Part shown: in pieces, positions 32,359 through 38,493 of the stretch
How the letters are laid out: every line of letters begins with the position of its first letter
Numbering within the stretch: the stretch's first letter is position 1
Source: Acidimicrobiia bacterium
GTDB taxonomy: Bacteria > Actinomycetota > Acidimicrobiia > IMCC26256 > JACDBD01
Direction: 5' to 3'
Assembly: GCA_035637335.1 (NCBI GenBank)
Contig: DASPXI010000030.1
Coordinates: 634 to 64,633 of the forward strand
DNA length: 64,000 bases
Notes under the pieces: model-generated
The model's input: only the letters and a program-made list of their open reading frames with translations
Told to the model about the DNA's origin: nothing
The model's database searches: none
Made by a program: the position numbers and the translations under genes

Positions 32359-32994
32359 TCACGGACTGGGCGTCGGCTTCATGCTCCCGCCGGTAGGCGC
32401 CTCGTACCGAACTCTGCGCACGATGATGTCGTTGGCTGGGTCGACCACCTGGTAGTCGCGAGAGCCTCGGTTGTAGTCGTCGTCGTCCTTCTCCTTGACC
32501 TTTACGACCCAGATCGGCTCCTCCTCCGGCAGTGGCTCCCTCGAGTGCTCCCGGTTGGCCCCCTCGCCTGGCGGAGGGGGCGTGAAAACGATCACCGTGA
32601 CTTGCTGAGGGCTCTCGGAGAAATACACCTGGAACTCGCCTTCGTTGGCGCAGACCCAGAGTGATTCGATCGGCTTCTCCACACGTTCGGCATGTTCGAT
32701 CGCGGCCTTGTAGCCGGCACGCAATACCTCCTCCGCGTGCTTGCCGGGCCACCAGGCATCGGCCCCGCCATCGAGCCAGTGGTCCCGAAAGTGGCGGGCG
32801 TCCCCAGAGGTGAGCCCGGCGCGGCCTGGGCCCGGCTGGCCGGCTGCGTGCTGATCGGCCAGGTCGGCGAGCGGGTCGTCGATCTCCTGCAGTACGGCAC
32901 GGTATGCCGTCAGGTAGTTCGGGACGCCGAACTGTTGGTCGAGCAGGCCGAACTGGCGACCCTTTCCCACGAAGTAAATGGGCATCGACGGCAT
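32359..32994 (-). CDS. hypothetical protein, co-transcribed with the ATPase-TPR-cyclase gene
   Basis: 211-aa ORF. ATG 32994 is preceded by GAGAGGAG, 15 nt after the cyclase stop. Acidic Lys/Asp-rich C-terminal region. No family recognised. Confidence 0.6.
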   Translation of the reverse strand: MPSMPIYFVGKGRQFGLLDQQFGVPNYLTAYRAVLQEIDDPLADLADQHAAGQPGPGRAGLTSGDARHFRDHWLDGGADAWWPGKHAEEVLRAGYKAAIEHAERVEKPIESLWVCANEGEFQVYFSESPQQVTVIVFTPPPPGEGANREHSREPLPEEEPIWVVKVKEKDDDDYNRGSRDYQVVDPANDIIVRRVRYEAPTGGSMKPTPSP

Positions 32995-33009
32995 GCGCCG
33001 CTCCTCTCG

Positions 33010-36000
33010 TTAGGTGCTTGCTGTCTCAGTGGACACTGCGTACAGACGGTGGGGGTCGGTGATGCCTTTGAGCTGGTGCAAGCCGCGATCGTCGAACACG
33101 GTGCCGGCCGAGGTGCGGGCGAGGCTCCGGACGGTCTCGGAGACAAGCGTCTGGCCCGCCGCGGCCTGGCTGCACACCCTGGCGGCGATGTTGACGGCGC
33201 CGCCGTACACGTTGTTTGCAGATCGAATCACGTCTCCGGCGTGGATGCCGACGTGAAGACGGAAACCCACCCCACGGGCACTTTCGTGCATACGGCTCGC
33301 GCAGTCAATGGCGCGTCGAGCCGACGGGAACACGGCCAGGTTGCCATCACCCAGCGTGATGCCCTCGACCACATCACCGCCGCAGTCGTGTACCAGGGAA
33401 CGCACCGACGCGTCGAGTTGGTCGGCTTGTGCTCGGTAGGCGAAATCACCGAGTCGTTCGGTTAACGACGTGGAGTCGGCGATGTCGGTGAACAGGATCA
33501 CGAACATGTCCATCCCAGTCCGGGCGGGCGCAGCTGCGGCGCGCGCGGGCTCCTTGCCGCGCAGCCGGTCGGCCAGTTCCGACGCCTGCTGCTCGAAGGC
33601 CGGCATGTCGAGCTCGTCGAACACCCCTCTCGCCTCCTGCGCGAGCTGGCCGGCCTGGGCGCGGTCGCCGTCCGTTGCCAGCATCTGCGCCAGTTCGAGC
33701 GACGCTCGACCGAGCTCCGGTCGCAGGCCGCGCGCTCTGGCCACTTCGACGGCCTCCCGAAGGAGCGAGTCGGCCTCTTCGAGCCGGCCCTGTCGTCGCG
33801 CCAGCGCGCCGCGGACGCGGGGCACGAGCACGACCGGCCCGTCGGTGATCACCATGCCGTGTTCGGCAACACGGGCGAGTCCGCGCTCGATCCGGTCGAG
33901 CGGGAGGTCGACGTCCACGAGCAGTGCCAGCTCGGCGAGGTACGCGAACCACCCCGTTGCACCGATGAAGGGTGGCCACCGGCCCGAAACGCGTTCCGGA
34001 TGCGCGGCGACAGCGGCGCGGACCTCGTCGTGCTGCCCGGCATGGGCACGCGCGATCTGCCGCGCGAGCCACACGGTCTCCTCTTCGACGACCATGTCGT
34101 CTTGGGACTCGCTGAGCTTGTCGAGTGCGAGCTCCGACGGGCCGAAAGCCCCGCGTAGCAGCCGTGCGGAAGCTACCGCGGGAAGAAAGAAGGAGCAGCT
34201 CCACAGGTAACGCGACAACCGGGACGCGTTCCACGCCTCCTCGCCGTACCGCTCGGCCTCCCGGAAACGGCCACGGGCCAATGCGACGGCGGTGAGCGCG
34301 GTCAGCGCCAGGCTGCGTTCGGCGGCGTCGCCGGTGAACTCCGTTTCCTCACGCGCCTCGGCCGCCACCTTCTCGGCGCGGTCGGGGTCGCCGAGCCACA
34401 GCTGTGTCAGCGCCAGGCGAGGTGACGGAAGGCCGAGCAACCAAGGATCGTCTTGGGCCTTTGCATGGGTGAGCGCATCCTCGAATCGTTCCTCGGCCCC
34501 GCGCAGGTCGAGCCGCATCCAATCGATGACCCCCAGCGCGTTGAGGGCCCGCGTGCAGGCACGGTGATCATCGACTTGACGCCCGATCTCGAGGCCCCGG
34601 GTCGACAACTCGGTGCCGCGCTCGAGATCGCCCTGCGCCCAGGCAACCTCGCCGAGCTGGGCGAGCAGGCGCGCCTCGAGGACGGGATCCGTGTCGTGAA
34701 GCGCTTCGAGCGCCTCGTCGAGGCCTGACGTATCGATGGCAGTCCCGAACCGCGCCTCGTGCAACCGGGCGTGAGCCTGCTCGACGAGCGCGACGGCAAC
34801 ACGCCGAACATCGCCGGCAGCGCGGTAGCGGTCGATGGCAATGGCAATGTGCTTCTGGCCCAGCCTCACGTCCATGTGTCGATAGTGCGAGTCGCCGGCT
34901 CGGAAGTGGAGATCGGCGATCAAGCCGTCCGGTTCCCCTAGCTCCTCGGCCGCGGCGGCGGCCGCCTCGTAGCACCGGGCGGCGTCGGCCCAGGCGAGCA
35001 CGTCCCAGGCCCGGTTGCCCGCCGCGGCCGTGTATTCGAGGCGCTCGCGCGCGGTGGCGGCGGGCCCAGCCTCGATGAGGTGATGGGCGACTTCGAGAAT
35101 CGGTCGGTCACCGCTCTCGTCAAGAGCCCGTGCGATGGCCGCGTGGAGCTCTCTCCGGCGCGCCGGTCCCGGAGCGGCATACGCCACGCGCGCGTAGAGC
35201 GGATGTTCGAACCACCAACGGGTCCCATCAGCGGTGATGAGCCCGTGCGCAGCCGCCTCCTCGAGCGCGGCCAACAGCTCGTGCTCGGGTTGCTTGGTGA
35301 CCGCACCGACGGCCTCGGCCGAGAATGAGCGCCCGAGAAACGCCGCCGCCGTGAGAACCGTTCGGGCGGCCTCGCTCACCTCGTCCAGCCGTGCCCCGAT
35401 GGCGTTCGTGAGCTCAGGTGGCCCGGACAGGTCGATATCGGCAGCTGCCGCGGTCGAGAGATCCTCCGCCCCCTCCGCCCGGCGCGCGATCTGGCGCACG
35501 AGATTCTCCAGGAACAACGGGTTGCCGCTCGAGGCTTCGTGCAGGAAATGGCCGAGCTGTCGGGACGATCGATGAAGGCCGAGGGAGTCAACGAGAACGG
35601 CCGACTCCTCGGTGTTGAGGCCCTCGAGATCGATGCGCCGGCACAATCCTTCGCGAGCAATCCGCGCGAGCTCGCCCGCCACGTGCTCGTCGACGTCGGG
35701 ACGGTGCGTAGCGATGATCATGAACGAAACCGGTTCGAGCACGCTGGCGTCGGCGATCCCGAGCGCGAGGTACGTGAAGAGGTCCAGGGAAGCGCGGTCG
35801 ACCCAGTGGAGGTCGTCGAGCACGAGCAGGAGTGGCCTGGTCCGGGTCAAGGCGACGGTCGCGCCTGTCACCGCCAGGAACAGCCACGTCTTCTCCTGCT
35901 CCGGCATCGCATCGTCTGCGAGCGGGGGCCGCGACGCCGAGTCCGGGCTCGGCGCCCGCCCGAGCAGCCGGCTGATGACCGATGCCGACCCTCCCTGTGC

Positions 36001-36291
36001 AGGGTCGGTCCCCGTGAGGGACTCCAGCCGGGGCAGCAGCGAGCTCGCGAACGGCAGGTAGGGGAGACCGAGATGCTCACGGCATCGGCCCGTGCACACC
36101 TCGACGCCGCGCTCGGCGACCGCCCACTGCTGCAACTCGTGGACGAGCCGAGACTTGCCGACACCCGCGTCGCCCGAGACGAAGACGACCCGGGGTTGGC
36201 CTGACACCGCCTCGTCGAGCCACCGCTCGAGGAGCTCCAACTCCTGCCTGCGTCCGACGAAACGAGGCGTGCTCGACTCCTGATTCACCAC
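33010..36291 (-). CDS. AAA-ATPase (AAA_16/STAND-like) + TPR-like repeat protein with a C-terminal class III adenylate/guanylate cyclase domain
   Basis: Walker A GDAGVGKSRL, Walker B LLLVLDDLHWVD, a long helical-repeat middle region, and a C-terminal cyclase core FVILFTDIADST...LGDGNLAVF...GIHAGDV...GGAVNIAARV. Confidence 0.8.
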   Translation of the reverse strand: MVNQESSTPRFVGRRQELELLERWLDEAVSGQPRVVFVSGDAGVGKSRLVHELQQWAVAERGVEVCTGRCREHLGLPYLPFASSLLPRLESLTGTDPAQGGSASVISRLLGRAPSPDSASRPPLADDAMPEQEKTWLFLAVTGATVALTRTRPLLLVLDDLHWVDRASLDLFTYLALGIADASVLEPVSFMIIATHRPDVDEHVAGELARIAREGLCRRIDLEGLNTEESAVLVDSLGLHRSSRQLGHFLHEASSGNPLFLENLVRQIARRAEGAEDLSTAAAADIDLSGPPELTNAIGARLDEVSEAARTVLTAAAFLGRSFSAEAVGAVTKQPEHELLAALEEAAAHGLITADGTRWWFEHPLYARVAYAAPGPARRRELHAAIARALDESGDRPILEVAHHLIEAGPAATARERLEYTAAAGNRAWDVLAWADAARCYEAAAAAAEELGEPDGLIADLHFRAGDSHYRHMDVRLGQKHIAIAIDRYRAAGDVRRVAVALVEQAHARLHEARFGTAIDTSGLDEALEALHDTDPVLEARLLAQLGEVAWAQGDLERGTELSTRGLEIGRQVDDHRACTRALNALGVIDWMRLDLRGAEERFEDALTHAKAQDDPWLLGLPSPRLALTQLWLGDPDRAEKVAAEAREETEFTGDAAERSLALTALTAVALARGRFREAERYGEEAWNASRLSRYLWSCSFFLPAVASARLLRGAFGPSELALDKLSESQDDMVVEEETVWLARQIARAHAGQHDEVRAAVAAHPERVSGRWPPFIGATGWFAYLAELALLVDVDLPLDRIERGLARVAEHGMVITDGPVVLVPRVRGALARRQGRLEEADSLLREAVEVARARGLRPELGRASLELAQMLATDGDRAQAGQLAQEARGVFDELDMPAFEQQASELADRLRGKEPARAAAAPARTGMDMFVILFTDIADSTSLTERLGDFAYRAQADQLDASVRSLVHDCGGDVVEGITLGDGNLAVFPSARRAIDCASRMHESARGVGFRLHVGIHAGDVIRSANNVYGGAVNIAARVCSQAAAGQTLVSETVRSLARTSAGTVFDDRGLHQLKGITDPHRLYAVSTETAST

Positions 36292-36375: not shown

Positions 36376-36669
36376 TCAACGGAGAGCGGCTCCGGAGGGT
36401 CGGGGCTCGACGGGCCGGCTCCAGGTGCCCAGAAGCTCGAACACGAGCCGATCGGGCAATGCCGCCAGCCGGAGCGCGACGTCGCCACAGTTCGGGCAGC
36501 GCATGACGATGCCGGCGCCTTGATAGCTGCGGTGTGACCCAGCCGGGTTGCGATCGCCGCACGACTGGCACGTGCGCTCGAGCGTCGTGAACTCGGCGAC
36601 GAAGATCTCCTGGAGCAGCCCGGCAATCGCGTTCCCGTCAGTGTGCAGCTCGTCTGCTTCCATGGTCAT
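36376..36669 (-). CDS. DUF6510-like small Cys-cluster protein
   Basis: MTMEADELHTDGNAIAGLLQEIF...CQSCG...RCPNCG. ATGA overlap with the upstream reductase. Confidence 0.65.
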   Translation of the reverse strand: MTMEADELHTDGNAIAGLLQEIFVAEFTTLERTCQSCGDRNPAGSHRSYQGAGIVMRCPNCGDVALRLAALPDRLVFELLGTWSRPVEPRPSGAALR

Positions 36670-37451
36670 CCTCCCGTCGGTCCAAAGCGCTCGGTCTTGA
36701 TCGCGTGCGGGTCGTGACCGAGCTGCACGAGCAGGTCGGCGACGTGCTCGACGAAGCCGGTCGGTCCGCAGACGTAGACGCGGGCGTGCCGGTTGGGCTC
36801 GGCGCCGAGCTCGCTCAGCATCTCCGCGTTCACTCGCCCCGCCCAGCCGGTCCAGCCGGGTGGCTGCTCGCGAGTGAGCGTGTAGCGAACCATGACGCCG
36901 TTCTCCGCGAGCGTGGTCAGCTCCTCGCGGTAGAGCACGTCGTCCAATGACCGCGCCGACACGAGCAGCGTTGCGTCCACGCTGCTCGTCGAGTCGACGC
37001 GGTGGCGCAGCATGGCCATGAGCGGGACGAGACCGGAGCCGCCGCCCAGGAGCAGGAGAGGGCCACCGTCGCCGATCTGCCACGTGAAGTAGCCACCGAT
37101 CGGGCCTCGCAGCTCGAGCGGGTCGCCCGGACGCAGCTCACTCGTGAGATAGGGCGAGACCTCACCGTCTTCGATGCGCTCGACTGTGAGCGCGAGCTGC
37201 GAATCTTGGGGCGACGACGCGATCGAGTACGAACGCTCGGCCTGATACCCGTCCTCGGCGGTCAAGCGCACGTCGACGTGCTGACCGGCGAGGTGCCCGG
37301 GCCAGTCGGGAACGTCGAGTACGAGCGTCGTCGCTGATGGCGTTTCAGGTTGCAGCCGGGCGAGGGTTGCGATGCGCCACGTGAGCGGAACGCGGCGCGG
37401 GCTCAAATAGTCGCCCTCGCAAGCTCGGGCTCCTGCTCCGGCGGTCGGCAA
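36666..37451 (-). CDS. ferredoxin-NAD(P) reductase-type FAD/NAD-binding oxidoreductase
   Basis: RSYSIASSP (RxYS FAD motif) and LLLLGGGSGLVPLMAML NAD motif. The start is uncertain: TTG 37451 or TTG 37406. Confidence 0.75.
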   Translation of the reverse strand: MPTAGAGARACEGDYLSPRRVPLTWRIATLARLQPETPSATTLVLDVPDWPGHLAGQHVDVRLTAEDGYQAERSYSIASSPQDSQLALTVERIEDGEVSPYLTSELRPGDPLELRGPIGGYFTWQIGDGGPLLLLGGGSGLVPLMAMLRHRVDSTSSVDATLLVSARSLDDVLYREELTTLAENGVMVRYTLTREQPPGWTGWAGRVNAEMLSELGAEPNRHARVYVCGPTGFVEHVADLLVQLGHDPHAIKTERFGPTGG

Positions 37452-37470
37452 AGCCGCCGCCGTCGCGGCG

Positions 37471-38076
37471 TCAATCGCTCCAATAGCGCGCTTCCTTCCA
37501 GGGATCACCGTGGTTGTTGTACCCGTTGCTCTCCCAGAAGCCGGGCTCGTCGTGGTCCCGCAGGTCGAGGCCGCGAACCCACTTGGCGCTCTTCCAGAAA
37601 TAGAGGTGAGGCACGAGCAGCCGCGCCGGCCCGCCATGGATGGGTTCGAGCGGCTCGCCGTTGTACTCGTACGCGACCCACGCCTGCCCGTCGGTCATCT
37701 CGGCGAGGGGCAAGTTGGTCGTGTAGCCACCGTCGCAGAAGGCGAGCGCGAAGTCGGCTGATGTGTCGACGTTGTCGAGCAGGACGTCGACTGAGACGCC
37801 CTTCCACTCGGTGTCCAGCTTGGACCACTTGGTCACGCAGTGAATGTCCTTGCGGACCAGCTCGCTGGGCAGCGCGAGGAATTGTTCCCACGACCAGGTC
37901 ACGGGTTCGTCGACGAGGCCGGTGATCGAGAATGTCCACTCATCGAGCTGTGTGTACGGGGTCGGGCCGGCCGACAGCACCGGGAAGTCGTCGACGAGGT
38001 ACTGACCGGGCGGGATCCGACTCGGGTCGACATCGGTGCGACGCCGGCCGAAGAAACCGCGCGAGATCGGGGGCAC
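37471..38076 (-). CDS. sulfite-oxidase-like molybdopterin-binding oxidoreductase (short form)
   Basis: IHCVTKWSKLDTEWKGV...YNGEPLEPIHGGPARLLVPHLYFWKSAKWV. GTG 38076 is the likely start. The upstream part of track ORF 37471-38499 is antisense to a better gene. Confidence 0.75.
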   Translation of the reverse strand: MPPISRGFFGRRRTDVDPSRIPPGQYLVDDFPVLSAGPTPYTQLDEWTFSITGLVDEPVTWSWEQFLALPSELVRKDIHCVTKWSKLDTEWKGVSVDVLLDNVDTSADFALAFCDGGYTTNLPLAEMTDGQAWVAYEYNGEPLEPIHGGPARLLVPHLYFWKSAKWVRGLDLRDHDEPGFWESNGYNNHGDPWKEARYWSD

Positions 38077-38211
38077 GTCGCAACGATACGTCTTGTTATT
38101 GAGCGAGGATCTGGGCGGGATCCCTGAGACGACCGGCCGCGACCGGGTTTCGGTCTCCGTCAATGCTGGGTACGCGTTCACGGCCCCGTCTTTCGACCTC
38201 GAGGTTCTCTC

Positions 38212-38493
38212 ATGTTGGCCGTGACCGAAAACGCTGTGTCCGTGATCTGTCAGCTCACCGATCGTCCCGAATTGCCGGACGGCGCTGGCCTGCGGATCGC
38301 CAGCTCCGGTGAGGCGCCGAACCTGACCGTCTCGCCCGCCGGCAGTCCCGAGGCAGGCGACCAGGTGGTCGAGAGCGAAGGCGCGCGCGTGTTCCTCGAG
38401 CCGGAAGCAGCGGCGATGCTCGACGACAAGGTCCTTGACGCACGCGTCAACGACTCGGGCGGTGTCGAGTTCCTCGTAGCGAGCCAGGCATAG
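38212..38493 (+). CDS. HesB/IscA-family protein (no C-terminal Cys pair visible)
   Basis: 93 aa with MLAVTENAVSVI...GLRIASS...VFLEPEAAAMLDDKVLDA... pattern. GAGG RBS. Confidence 0.65.
   Translation: MLAVTENAVSVICQLTDRPELPDGAGLRIASSGEAPNLTVSPAGSPEAGDQVVESEGARVFLEPEAAAMLDDKVLDARVNDSGGVEFLVASQA

Follow-up and report, generated by a model that had tools for sequence, protein, structure and literature searches.

The stretch of DNA examined here, 64,000 nucleotides of an Acidimicrobiia metagenome-assembled genome (MAG) (assembly GCA_035637335.1, contig DASPXI010000030.1, positions 634 to 64,633; hereafter the window), carries on its minus strand a gene for a 1093-aa protein that joins an ATPase of the STAND type (signal-transducing ATPases that carry numerous domains) to a nucleotide cyclase, followed on the same strand by a 211-aa partner gene. 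The former is a single open reading frame (ORF), and the GenBank record of its product, which comes from an Acidimicrobiia MAG, is annotated as 'AAA family ATPase' only. Its coding signals are normal (GC content at third codon positions, GC3, of 0.82; base composition of 0.68-0.70 GC, in a genome of 69% GC), and it is a genuine coding gene of an uncultured soil actinobacterium.

The protein is arranged as a STAND NTPase, tetratricopeptide repeats (TPRs) and a C-terminal class III cyclase. Pfam assigns AAA_16 to residues 10-176 (E 2.5e-27), TPR_12 (E 1e-16) and TPR_MalT to residues 526-757, the latter with 38.9 bits for a cut-off of 45, and PF00211 Guanylate_cyc to residues 928-1084, with 34 bits for a cut-off of 21.9. 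An earlier reading of the bare sequence (the original prediction) had proposed this order of ATPase, helical repeats and cyclase without a helix-turn-helix (HTH) domain, and the Pfam assignment confirms it: neither GerE nor any other HTH family is matched in the 1093-aa protein by a scan at E up to 0.1, the same scan detecting GerE in the relatives P0036 and P0042. The motifs on which that reading was built (GDAGVGKS, LVLDD, FTDI, EGITLGDG and NVYGGAVNIAAR) are all present and were mapped (Table 1). Residues 177-430 are alignable and conserved within the family, their sole external match being a weak one to the NCBIfam model MalT (residues 302-419, E 1.2e-5), far under the cut-off. When the part formed by the nucleotide-binding oligomerisation domain (NOD) and the TPRs was searched against the PDB with phmmer and with a profile, no solved STAND homologue was found, only generic TPR matches and a marginal match to the P-loop of Apaf-1. 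The profile matches of the TPR region are to the TPRs of LGN/Pins, which bind peptides, so that the inducer of the protein may itself be a protein or a peptide.

Table 1. Features of the STAND-cyclase gene and its partner; positions are those of the window, or of the named locus.
Feature	Positions	Strand	Remarks
STAND-TPR-cyclase ORF	33010..36291	minus	1093 aa; GTG start at 36291, TAA stop at 33012-33010; identical to HYU38783.1 bar the start-codon residue
AAA_16 NTPase core of the nucleotide-binding oligomerisation domain, residues 10-176	35764..36264	minus	Pfam E 2.5e-27
Walker A GDAGVGKS	36151..36174	minus	G40, G43, G45 and K46 invariant in 31 homologues
Walker B LVLDD	35812..35826	minus	D160 invariant; D159 is D or E
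Helical, presumed winged-helix 'arm', residues ~177-430	35002..35763	minus	boundaries approximate, domain identity presumed; fastest-diverging part, 38% identity
TPR sensor region, residues ~431-905	33577..35001	minus	Pfam TPR_12, TPR_MalT; PDB profile LGN/Pins
Class III cyclase homology domain, LipJ/Rv1900c-like, residues 926-1086	33034..33516	minus	Pfam, PDB profile, AlphaFold, Foldseek
FTDI, first metal Asp D936, invariant	33481..33492	minus	motif mapping, family alignment
EGITLGDG, second metal Asp D982 (invariant), Ile978 in the Lys slot	33343..33366	minus	motif mapping, alignment
NVYGGAVNIAAR, N1027 in the Asp slot, transition-state N1034 and R1038	33178..33213	minus	motif mapping, alignment
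Shine-Dalgarno GAGGAG	33001..33006	minus	6 nt before the partner ATG, 4 nt after the cyclase stop codon
Partner gene, 211 aa (HYU38782.1)	32359..32994	minus	orphan family; directly downstream in at least 17 loci
cNMP_binding gene with divergent partner homologue	L033 5524-6594; L037 4530-5594; L038 736-1800	same strand	pair in which the cNMP_binding gene replaces the STAND-cyclase upstream

The closest solved structures of the cyclase domain are, by single-sequence search, those of Ma1120 (E 2.8e-24) and of Rv1900c, also called LipJ (E 1.1e-20), and the family profile matches Rv1900c at E 1e-36. An AlphaFold model of residues 916-1093, built with 20 homologues, has a predicted local distance difference test (pLDDT) score of 91 and a predicted template-modelling (pTM) score of 0.86. 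Compared by Foldseek with Rv1900c and Ma1120, it gives query-normalised template-modelling scores of 0.86-0.88 and target-normalised ones of up to 0.96, with root-mean-square deviations of 1.2-1.6 Å. By sequence and by fold these two enzymes are thus the nearest references, far closer in sequence than Rv1625c, to which the domain had originally been compared.

The catalytic positions were located by a rule taken from Rv1625c, where Asp256 and Asp300 bind the metals, Lys296 and Asp365 the substrate, and Asn372 and Arg376 stabilise the transition state (PMC4174876). The Lys slot is the second metal Asp minus 4, and the Asp slot is the transition-state Asn minus 7. Under this rule, the 1093-aa protein has D936 and D982 as metal ligands, N1034 and R1038 as transition-state residues, I978 in the Lys slot and N1027 in the Asp slot. 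Conservation was counted in an alignment of 31 sequences, whose members are 35-96% identical. D936, D982 and R1038 are invariant (31/31) and N1034 is kept in 30 of 31, which supports the earlier prediction, based on the presence of these four positions, of a catalytically competent cyclase. The Walker A and Walker B residues listed in Table 1 as invariant are so in the same alignment.

The two specificity slots behave differently. The Lys slot is occupied by Ile (22/31) or Val (9/31) and never by Lys (0/31), and the Asp slot varies widely (13 Gly, 6 Asn, 5 Ala, 2 Ser, 2 Lys, then Ile, Met and Arg), a more divergent subgroup having Ile in the first and Arg in the second. The canonical adenylyl Lys/Asp pair is thus present at neither slot of the 1093-aa protein, where its replacement by Ile and Asn had been correctly predicted; no Lys or Asp is found at a shifted position near these slots either, and the canonical guanylyl Glu is likewise missing from the Lys slot. 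In addition, L980 is invariant in the family. A hydrophobic residue that touches both the base and the other subunit of the dimer has been noted in the beta2-beta3 loop (PMC4174876), and L980 may correspond to it, the two being equated by counting 2 residues back from the metal Asp only.

To place the domain among its relatives, its profile was searched against 1.84 billion representative proteins, with 1346 matches at E <=1e-30. The best matches are not STAND proteins. They are mostly proteins of ~440-450 aa with a C-terminal cyclase behind an alpha/beta-hydrolase, which is the layout of LipJ and which a domain scan resolves as Abhydrolase_1 + Guanylate_cyc. VEG-x-x-LGDG and NVYGGAVNIAAR recur in these uncharacterised LipJ-like sister domains. 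Of 141 sister motifs, 114 have Lys at the Lys slot, and 126 have Asn at the Asp slot. The Asn had been put forward as a non-canonical peculiarity of the 1093-aa protein; it is the majority state and, as these counts are read here, the ancestral state of a large LipJ-like clade. On the same reading, the change specific to the STAND family is that of Lys to Ile or Val, followed by drift at the Asn.

The identities go in the same direction. The cyclase domain is 57.8% identical to representatives of the hydrolase-cyclase proteins, 61.5% to its own orthologues, and ~35% to the cyclase domains of other STAND-cyclases. The NOD-TPR part has relatives among STAND-cyclases only, at ~35% identity. With a LipJ-like cyclase behind a STAND-like NOD-TPR part, the protein is thus shown to be a chimera between a MalT-type scaffold and a LipJ-type cyclase. 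Some of the best matches have two copies of the LipJ-like cyclase per chain, in tandem-cyclase proteins of ~345-370 aa (P0241, P0242, P0244, P0246 and P0247); P0244 combines a copy with VEGK/NVYG and a divergent copy with STGDG / NYFGAPVN, an arrangement reminiscent of the mammalian pseudo-heterodimer.

A guanylyl-type signature, 'Glu plus small residue', was considered for the family and rejected. It came from HMMER pairwise and profile alignments, in which E976 faces the Lys in Ma1120 and the Asn in Rv1900c, and from the frequent Gly, Ala or Ser at the second slot, which brings to mind Cya2 with its Glu-Gly pair (PMC4215837). The sister motif VEGK-x-LGDG has both the Lys and, 2 residues upstream of it, the Glu that corresponds to E976, so that I978 is to be placed truly in the Lys slot. 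As the Lys of the sisters precedes the metal Asp by exactly 4 residues, the two-residue gap that HMMER opens after the Ma1120 Lys is most simply an artefact of gap placement.

What a Lys-less slot would mean for the substrate can be approached through known enzymes. In Rv1900c the Lys slot is filled by Asn, as seen by profile alignment. According to work by Sinha and colleagues in 2005, this residue is reportedly dispensable, and the enzyme has remained mainly an adenylyl cyclase, its guanylyl side-activity being minor. A mycobacterial STAND cyclase with a Gln-Asn pair is reported to have adenylyl activity and a guanylyl side-activity (bioRxiv 10.1101/2024.03.06.583649), and Ma1120 carries the canonical pair, Lys101/Asp157 (PMC4215837). 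An unusual or relaxed nucleotide specificity, as originally predicted, can serve as a working hypothesis, these precedents pointing to modest effects.

The family to which the protein belongs comprises ~35 clusters of full-length homologues of ~1050-1100 aa each, 40-96% identical, as retrieved by a search of 5.8 billion proteins. In a scan with one genome per species, they occur only in MAGs of uncultured Acidimicrobiia and other Actinomycetota. Among members that are ~50% identical overall, the cyclase is the best conserved domain (59.5% identity), before the NTPase (49%), the TPRs (47%) and the arm. When compared with the 96% and 87% identical relatives, the cyclase gene has ratios of non-synonymous to synonymous substitution rates (dN/dS) of 0.12 and 0.16, housekeeping neighbours having 0.08-0.26. 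Taken by domain, the ratio is 0.12-0.17, lowest in the TPR region (0.12) and 0.17 in the cyclase, and positive selection was rejected, as every domain is within this range. Conservation and selection together indicate that the NTPase and the cyclase both work and that the latter is not a domain in decay.

Among the best 120 homologues, the cyclase is C-terminal in ~70. Pfam resolves several versions of this layout: AAA_16-TPR-LuxR-cyclase (P0036, P0042), AAA_16-TPR-cyclase (P0037) and kinase-AAA_16-TPR-cyclase (P0079), to which is added SARP-AAA_16-TPR-cyclase (P0017), its cyclase being recognised by phmmer only. The NOD-TPR scaffold of these metagenomic relatives is ~35% identical to that of the 1093-aa protein over 83-99% of its length. 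They differ from it by a cyclase of another subtype (~35% identity, motif xHTGDG), in which several retain the canonical Lys and Asp, by extra HTH or kinase modules, and by the partner gene, a weak likeness of which is found in L024 only. The original prediction had taken the architecture to be unfamiliar, and this holds in part: with ~35 orthologue clusters besides the LuxR, kinase and SARP versions it is common, but literature searches returned no characterised ATPase-TPR-C-terminal-cyclase protein. The C-terminal-cyclase STAND architecture is thus, as far as the homologues retrieved here allow one to judge, uncharacterised but not rare. An N-terminal cyclase is seen in P0091-P0120 and in an 887-aa gene neighbouring the family member of locus L001.

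The best-known relatives in domain content are the mycobacterial Rv0386, Rv1358 and Rv2488c, also actinobacterial, in which the cyclase is N-terminal. They share with the 1093-aa protein a class III cyclase, a STAND NTPase of the AAA_16/NB-ARC type and TPRs, and end with a LuxR HTH (bioRxiv 10.1101/2024.03.06.583649), which the 1093-aa protein does not have. The order of cyclase and ATPase is also reversed, the 1093-aa protein having its ATPase at residues 10-176 and its cyclase at residues 926-1086. In the Rv0386 type the specificity residues are non-canonical too (the Gln-Asn pair, with the reported guanylyl side-activity), but the Lys slot holds Gln instead of a hydrophobic residue, the cyclase domains are only ~35% identical, and the conserved downstream partner gene is a feature of the 1093-aa protein family. 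In LipJ-like proteins the cyclase is C-terminal as well, and Rv1900c also lacks the substrate Lys. They carry an N-terminal alpha/beta-hydrolase where the 1093-aa protein has a STAND NTPase and TPRs, and their sister clade mostly retains the Lys, as does Ma1120 with its canonical pair, where the 1093-aa protein has Ile. Finally, the protein is reminiscent of MalT, the large ATP-binding LuxR-family regulators (LAL) and PH0952, which consist of a NOD, an arm, a TPR or SUPR sensor and a C-terminal output. The likeness is visible in domain order and in the weak TPR_MalT and MalT matches, similarity to the solved MalT or PH0952 being under detection in sequence searches. The output of MalT and the LAL proteins is LuxR DNA-binding, whereas that of the 1093-aa protein would be an enzyme; its layout is, in terms of these domain assignments, that of MalT/LAL, with the HTH replaced, or in some relatives followed, by a cyclase.

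The partner ORF starts 15 nt after the stop of the cyclase gene, on the same strand. No terminator-like site was found between the two genes by a terminator scan; together with the short gap and the GAGGAG site, this argues for an operon-like pairing. A consensus promoter scan was also empty. The partner has no sequence match in Pfam, PADLOC or the PDB. Its AlphaFold model (pLDDT 76) is helical in the N-terminal half and rich in beta structure in the C-terminal one. The partner family counts 142 clusters, all of ~197 aa and all annotated 'hypothetical', with an invariant N-terminal peptide, MPSMPxYFVGKGxQF, that is modelled as disordered.

The pairing was surveyed by tblastn and with a hidden Markov model (HMM) of the family over at least 30 loci. 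Besides the window, the partner is found behind the STAND-cyclase in L004-L013, L015, L020-L022, L025 and L036. It is kept in L009, L011 and L025, which have no other flanking-gene match, and in L036, where the gene context is wholly different; the most divergent members (L017, L018 and L024) have weak partner matches only. A first idea, that the downstream 211-aa ORF is unlinked to the cyclase gene, had come from 96%-identical relatives without the partner, and it is overturned by this survey. In those relatives, L001 and L002, a segment of ~7 kb lies in the partner's place (L001 8795-15588; L002 11347 onward). It codes for a convergent 887-aa protein with a cyclase, an NB-ARC/AAA_16 NTPase and TPRs in the canonical order, for an M36 peptidase and for a solute-binding protein, so that two STAND-cyclases of opposite domain order stand there tail to tail. 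In L003 (9224-9878) the partner is split over three frames, a fragment of 45 codons having a dN/dS of 0.46, which would reflect either decay into a pseudogene or a fault of the assembly.

Another pairing involves divergent homologues of the partner, P0228 and P0240. They are preceded, on the same strand and at 50-60 nt, by a standalone 139-aa gene with a cyclic nucleoside monophosphate (cNMP)-binding domain (cNMP_binding, PF00027; Table 1). The partner thus pairs with a producer, the cyclase, and with a receiver, the cNMP-binding protein, and it is in this way tied twice to cyclic-nucleotide biology.

Two further observations concern the partner. The AAA_16 domain of the STAND protein starts with an FVGRxxEL motif (N-terminus 36264-36240, RFVGRRQELELL), and the partner's invariant N-terminal peptide (in the window 32979-32947, YFVGKGRQFGLL) is similar to this motif, which may be due to chance or to mimicry. 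In L020, L021 and L022, which are from MFD long-read MAGs, several genes, including the STAND-cyclase of L021, are recovered by tblastn in multiple pieces that lie in different frames. This is probably due to long-read indel errors, and apparent pseudogenes in these loci are to be considered unreliable.

The chromosomal setting of the pair is stable. On one flank lies a cluster of genes for a DUF6510 protein, a FAD/NAD reductase and a molybdopterin oxidoreductase, and on the other a TetR regulator with acyl-CoA synthetase and dehydrogenase genes. In at least 12 species-level MAGs, the STAND-cyclase is in the same slot between DUF6510 and TetR. Across these MAGs the flanking enzymes are 77-92% identical, the STAND-cyclase 45-52% and the partner 43-58%. 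The pair thus diverges ~2.5 times faster than its neighbours, and it does so under purifying selection, which, together with the fixed chromosomal site, favours signalling over mobile defence. The unremarkable base composition and the synteny in many MAGs also led us to reject horizontal transfer or a defence island. The window codes for no other cyclase or NOD protein.

All these results can be integrated in a model, to which we give a probability of about 0.6: the 1093-aa protein would be a one-polypeptide converter of a signal into a second messenger, in which a STAND switch drives the C-terminal cyclase, the partner acting in the same pathway. At rest, STAND proteins that sense through TPRs are monomeric, bound to ADP and autoinhibited; once an inducer is bound and the nucleotide is exchanged, they multimerise (PMC6468293). 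Bacterial class III cyclases act as homodimers with their active sites at the interface (PMC4174876). By analogy we infer that the protein would rest as a closed, ADP-bound monomer, shut by contacts between sensor and NTPase. An inducer, possibly a peptide or a protein bound by the TPRs, would release the autoinhibition; ADP would be exchanged for ATP and the protein would multimerise. As class III active sites form only at the dimer interface, multimerisation would pair the C-terminal cyclase domains head-to-tail and switch on the synthesis of a 3',5'-cyclic nucleotide. The product would most probably be cAMP, since Rv1900c, the nearest solved relative, also lacks the Lys and is reportedly mainly an adenylyl cyclase; as the adenine-specifying Lys is replaced by Ile or Val, some relaxation of purine selectivity is conceivable. 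The cyclase gene would be co-transcribed with the partner gene, whose product may be a modulator or an output in the cyclic-nucleotide pathway, and one could even speculate that its invariant, disordered N-terminus is a ligand of the TPRs. The module as a whole would be a chromosomal signalling unit that uncultured Acidimicrobiia inherit vertically. That an active cyclase is controlled by a STAND switch, which was the core of the original prediction, is thus plausible in view of the residues conserved in both domains.

Several points weigh against this model. The Pfam score of the cyclase is low. With the substrate Lys absent and the second specificity slot unconserved, the efficiency or the substrate could deviate from expectation. 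The NOD is without a close solved relative, so that its MalT-type label rests on AAA_16, on the sub-threshold TPR_MalT and MalT matches and on domain order. No cNMP-binding gene, and thus no cNMP receptor, is encoded in the 64-kb window, and Foldseek of the partner model against the PDB gave no match. Lastly, the partner is absent from the 96%-identical relatives, L001 and L002, and fragmented in the 87% one, L003, which shows that it is not indispensable.

An alternative that we hold to be unlikely, but worth setting out at length, is that the pair is a conflict or immune system, in which the TPRs would sense an invader protein, the cyclase would raise a cyclic-nucleotide alarm, and the 211-aa protein would be either an effector, toxic or acting by abortive infection, or a factor for immunity or regulation. 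Such a role has precedents: cNMP cyclases are listed by Kaur et al. 2020 as signal generators in NTP-dependent conflict systems (PMC7159879), and a 2026 preprint describes an 'immune clade 1', predicted to be immune-related, whose cyclases are joined to STAND NTPases of the NACHT and AP-ATPase types (bioRxiv 10.64898/2026.08.12.744502). Like Pycsar and Pucsar systems, the 1093-aa protein would use a class III-fold cyclase as the signal generator, a kind of enzyme whose specificity is set by few base-contacting residues. The fast divergence of the pair over long distances, the orphan fold of the partner, its replacement in L001 and L002 by an insertion bringing another STAND-cyclase, and its possible decay in L003 would also suit a conflict system. 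However, the NTPase is of the AAA_16, MalT-like type and neither NACHT nor AP-ATPase as in the immune clade. No cNMP-binding effector adjoins the gene, as the TIR or transmembrane effectors of Pycsar systems do, and no recognisable effector domain (TIR, nuclease, pore or transmembrane) is found. PADLOC gave only generic TPR matches and a weak PycC match (E 1.3e-3, 16 bits) for the cyclase protein, and none for the partner. Again at variance with Pycsar and Pucsar, the gene is at a fixed position in at least 12 species-level genomes, flanked by fatty-acid and redox housekeeping genes and not by a defence island or a mobile element, and its dN/dS (0.12-0.16) is no higher than that of its neighbours, the TPR region, which would face the invader, being the lowest.

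It is rather improbable, in our opinion, that the hydrophobic Lys slot and the unconstrained second slot have turned the product from cAMP into cGMP, a cyclic pyrimidine or a mixture. The contrast between the family (Ile or Val throughout) and its sisters (mostly Lys), the drift of the Asp slot from Asn to Gly, Ala, Ser, Lys or Arg, and the PycC match are in line with such a change, as is the finding that defence-type cyclases have diversified to UTP, CTP, GTP and ATP via few base-contacting residues (bioRxiv 10.64898/2026.08.12.744502). The PycC match is, however, at the level of general class III homology. The Lys slot does not hold the signature Glu of guanylyl cyclases, E976 being 2 residues upstream and shared equally by the sisters that have Lys, and a variable second slot suggests that base contacts were lost, not that a new specific contact was gained. 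The precedents discussed above, Rv1900c with its Asn and the Gln-Asn mycobacterial STAND cyclase, also speak for adenylyl cyclases with guanylyl side-activity at most. An altered product is thus possible, but unsupported beyond the missing Lys.

A broader proposal combines these elements, and we consider it, taken as a whole, equally improbable: an as yet unrecognised, lineage-restricted cNMP module in which a STAND-driven, Lys-less cyclase would make cGMP, a cyclic pyrimidine or a mixture, and the orphan-fold partner would be a new pathway component, either as an effector or as a ligand of the TPRs through MPSMPxYFVGKGxQF. The cNMP-binding pairing would then reflect a modular 'source or receiver plus X' organisation, possibly serving resident immunity.

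Inactive cyclase domains normally lose their metal Asp residues first. A pseudo-enzyme, in which the cyclase domain would be a dimerisation or nucleotide-binding module and the output a protein-protein interaction, for example with the 211-aa partner, would fit the lost Lys, the unconstrained second slot, the low Pfam score and the inactive cyclase domains noted by Kaur et al. in some multidomain systems (PMC7159879), but it is very improbable, as the two metal Asp, the Asn and the Arg are kept in essentially all 31 members and the cyclase is the most conserved domain.

Returning to the STAND-driven cyclase that we favour, it does not overturn current understanding; its value is that of a well-defined and tractable variant, with no new principle. 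What is new here is the LipJ-type origin of the cyclase, the change of Lys to Ile or Val as the sole family-specific one, and the conserved orphan partner, whose alternative neighbour is a cNMP-binding gene. STAND-coupled cyclases are numerous in Actinomycetota, and the literature consulted reports no work on how active the ATPase is in the mycobacterial ones (bioRxiv 10.1101/2024.03.06.583649). The present family offers a clean test case for the control of an enzyme by such a switch: its output is C-terminal, as in MalT, with no DNA-binding domain to confound the readout, and oligomerisation is an obvious and testable route of activation for a dimerisation-dependent enzyme. It is also a natural experiment on specificity, since a Lys/Asn domain of the LipJ type was recruited to a STAND protein and then exchanged its Lys for Ile or Val, with drift at the Asn. 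The contribution of the Lys in the LipJ-like subtype would emerge from a comparison between sister and derived domains. Finally, the alternative pairings of the partner suggest that cyclic-nucleotide signalling in bacteria has a so far unrecognised component, here in a soil lineage that is uncultured.

As for the neighbouring genes of the window, the minus-strand genes at 36376-38160 (an Oxidored_molyb oxidoreductase, the FAD/NAD reductase and DUF6510) form a trio that is syntenic in 13-14 MAG loci. The starts of the genes upstream are overestimated in the mechanical ORF list, with for instance 342 aa listed where relatives have 230 aa. Beyond the trio, a 93-aa ORF on the plus strand (38212-38493), which from inspection by eye may be HesB/IscA-like, is present in only 4 loci.

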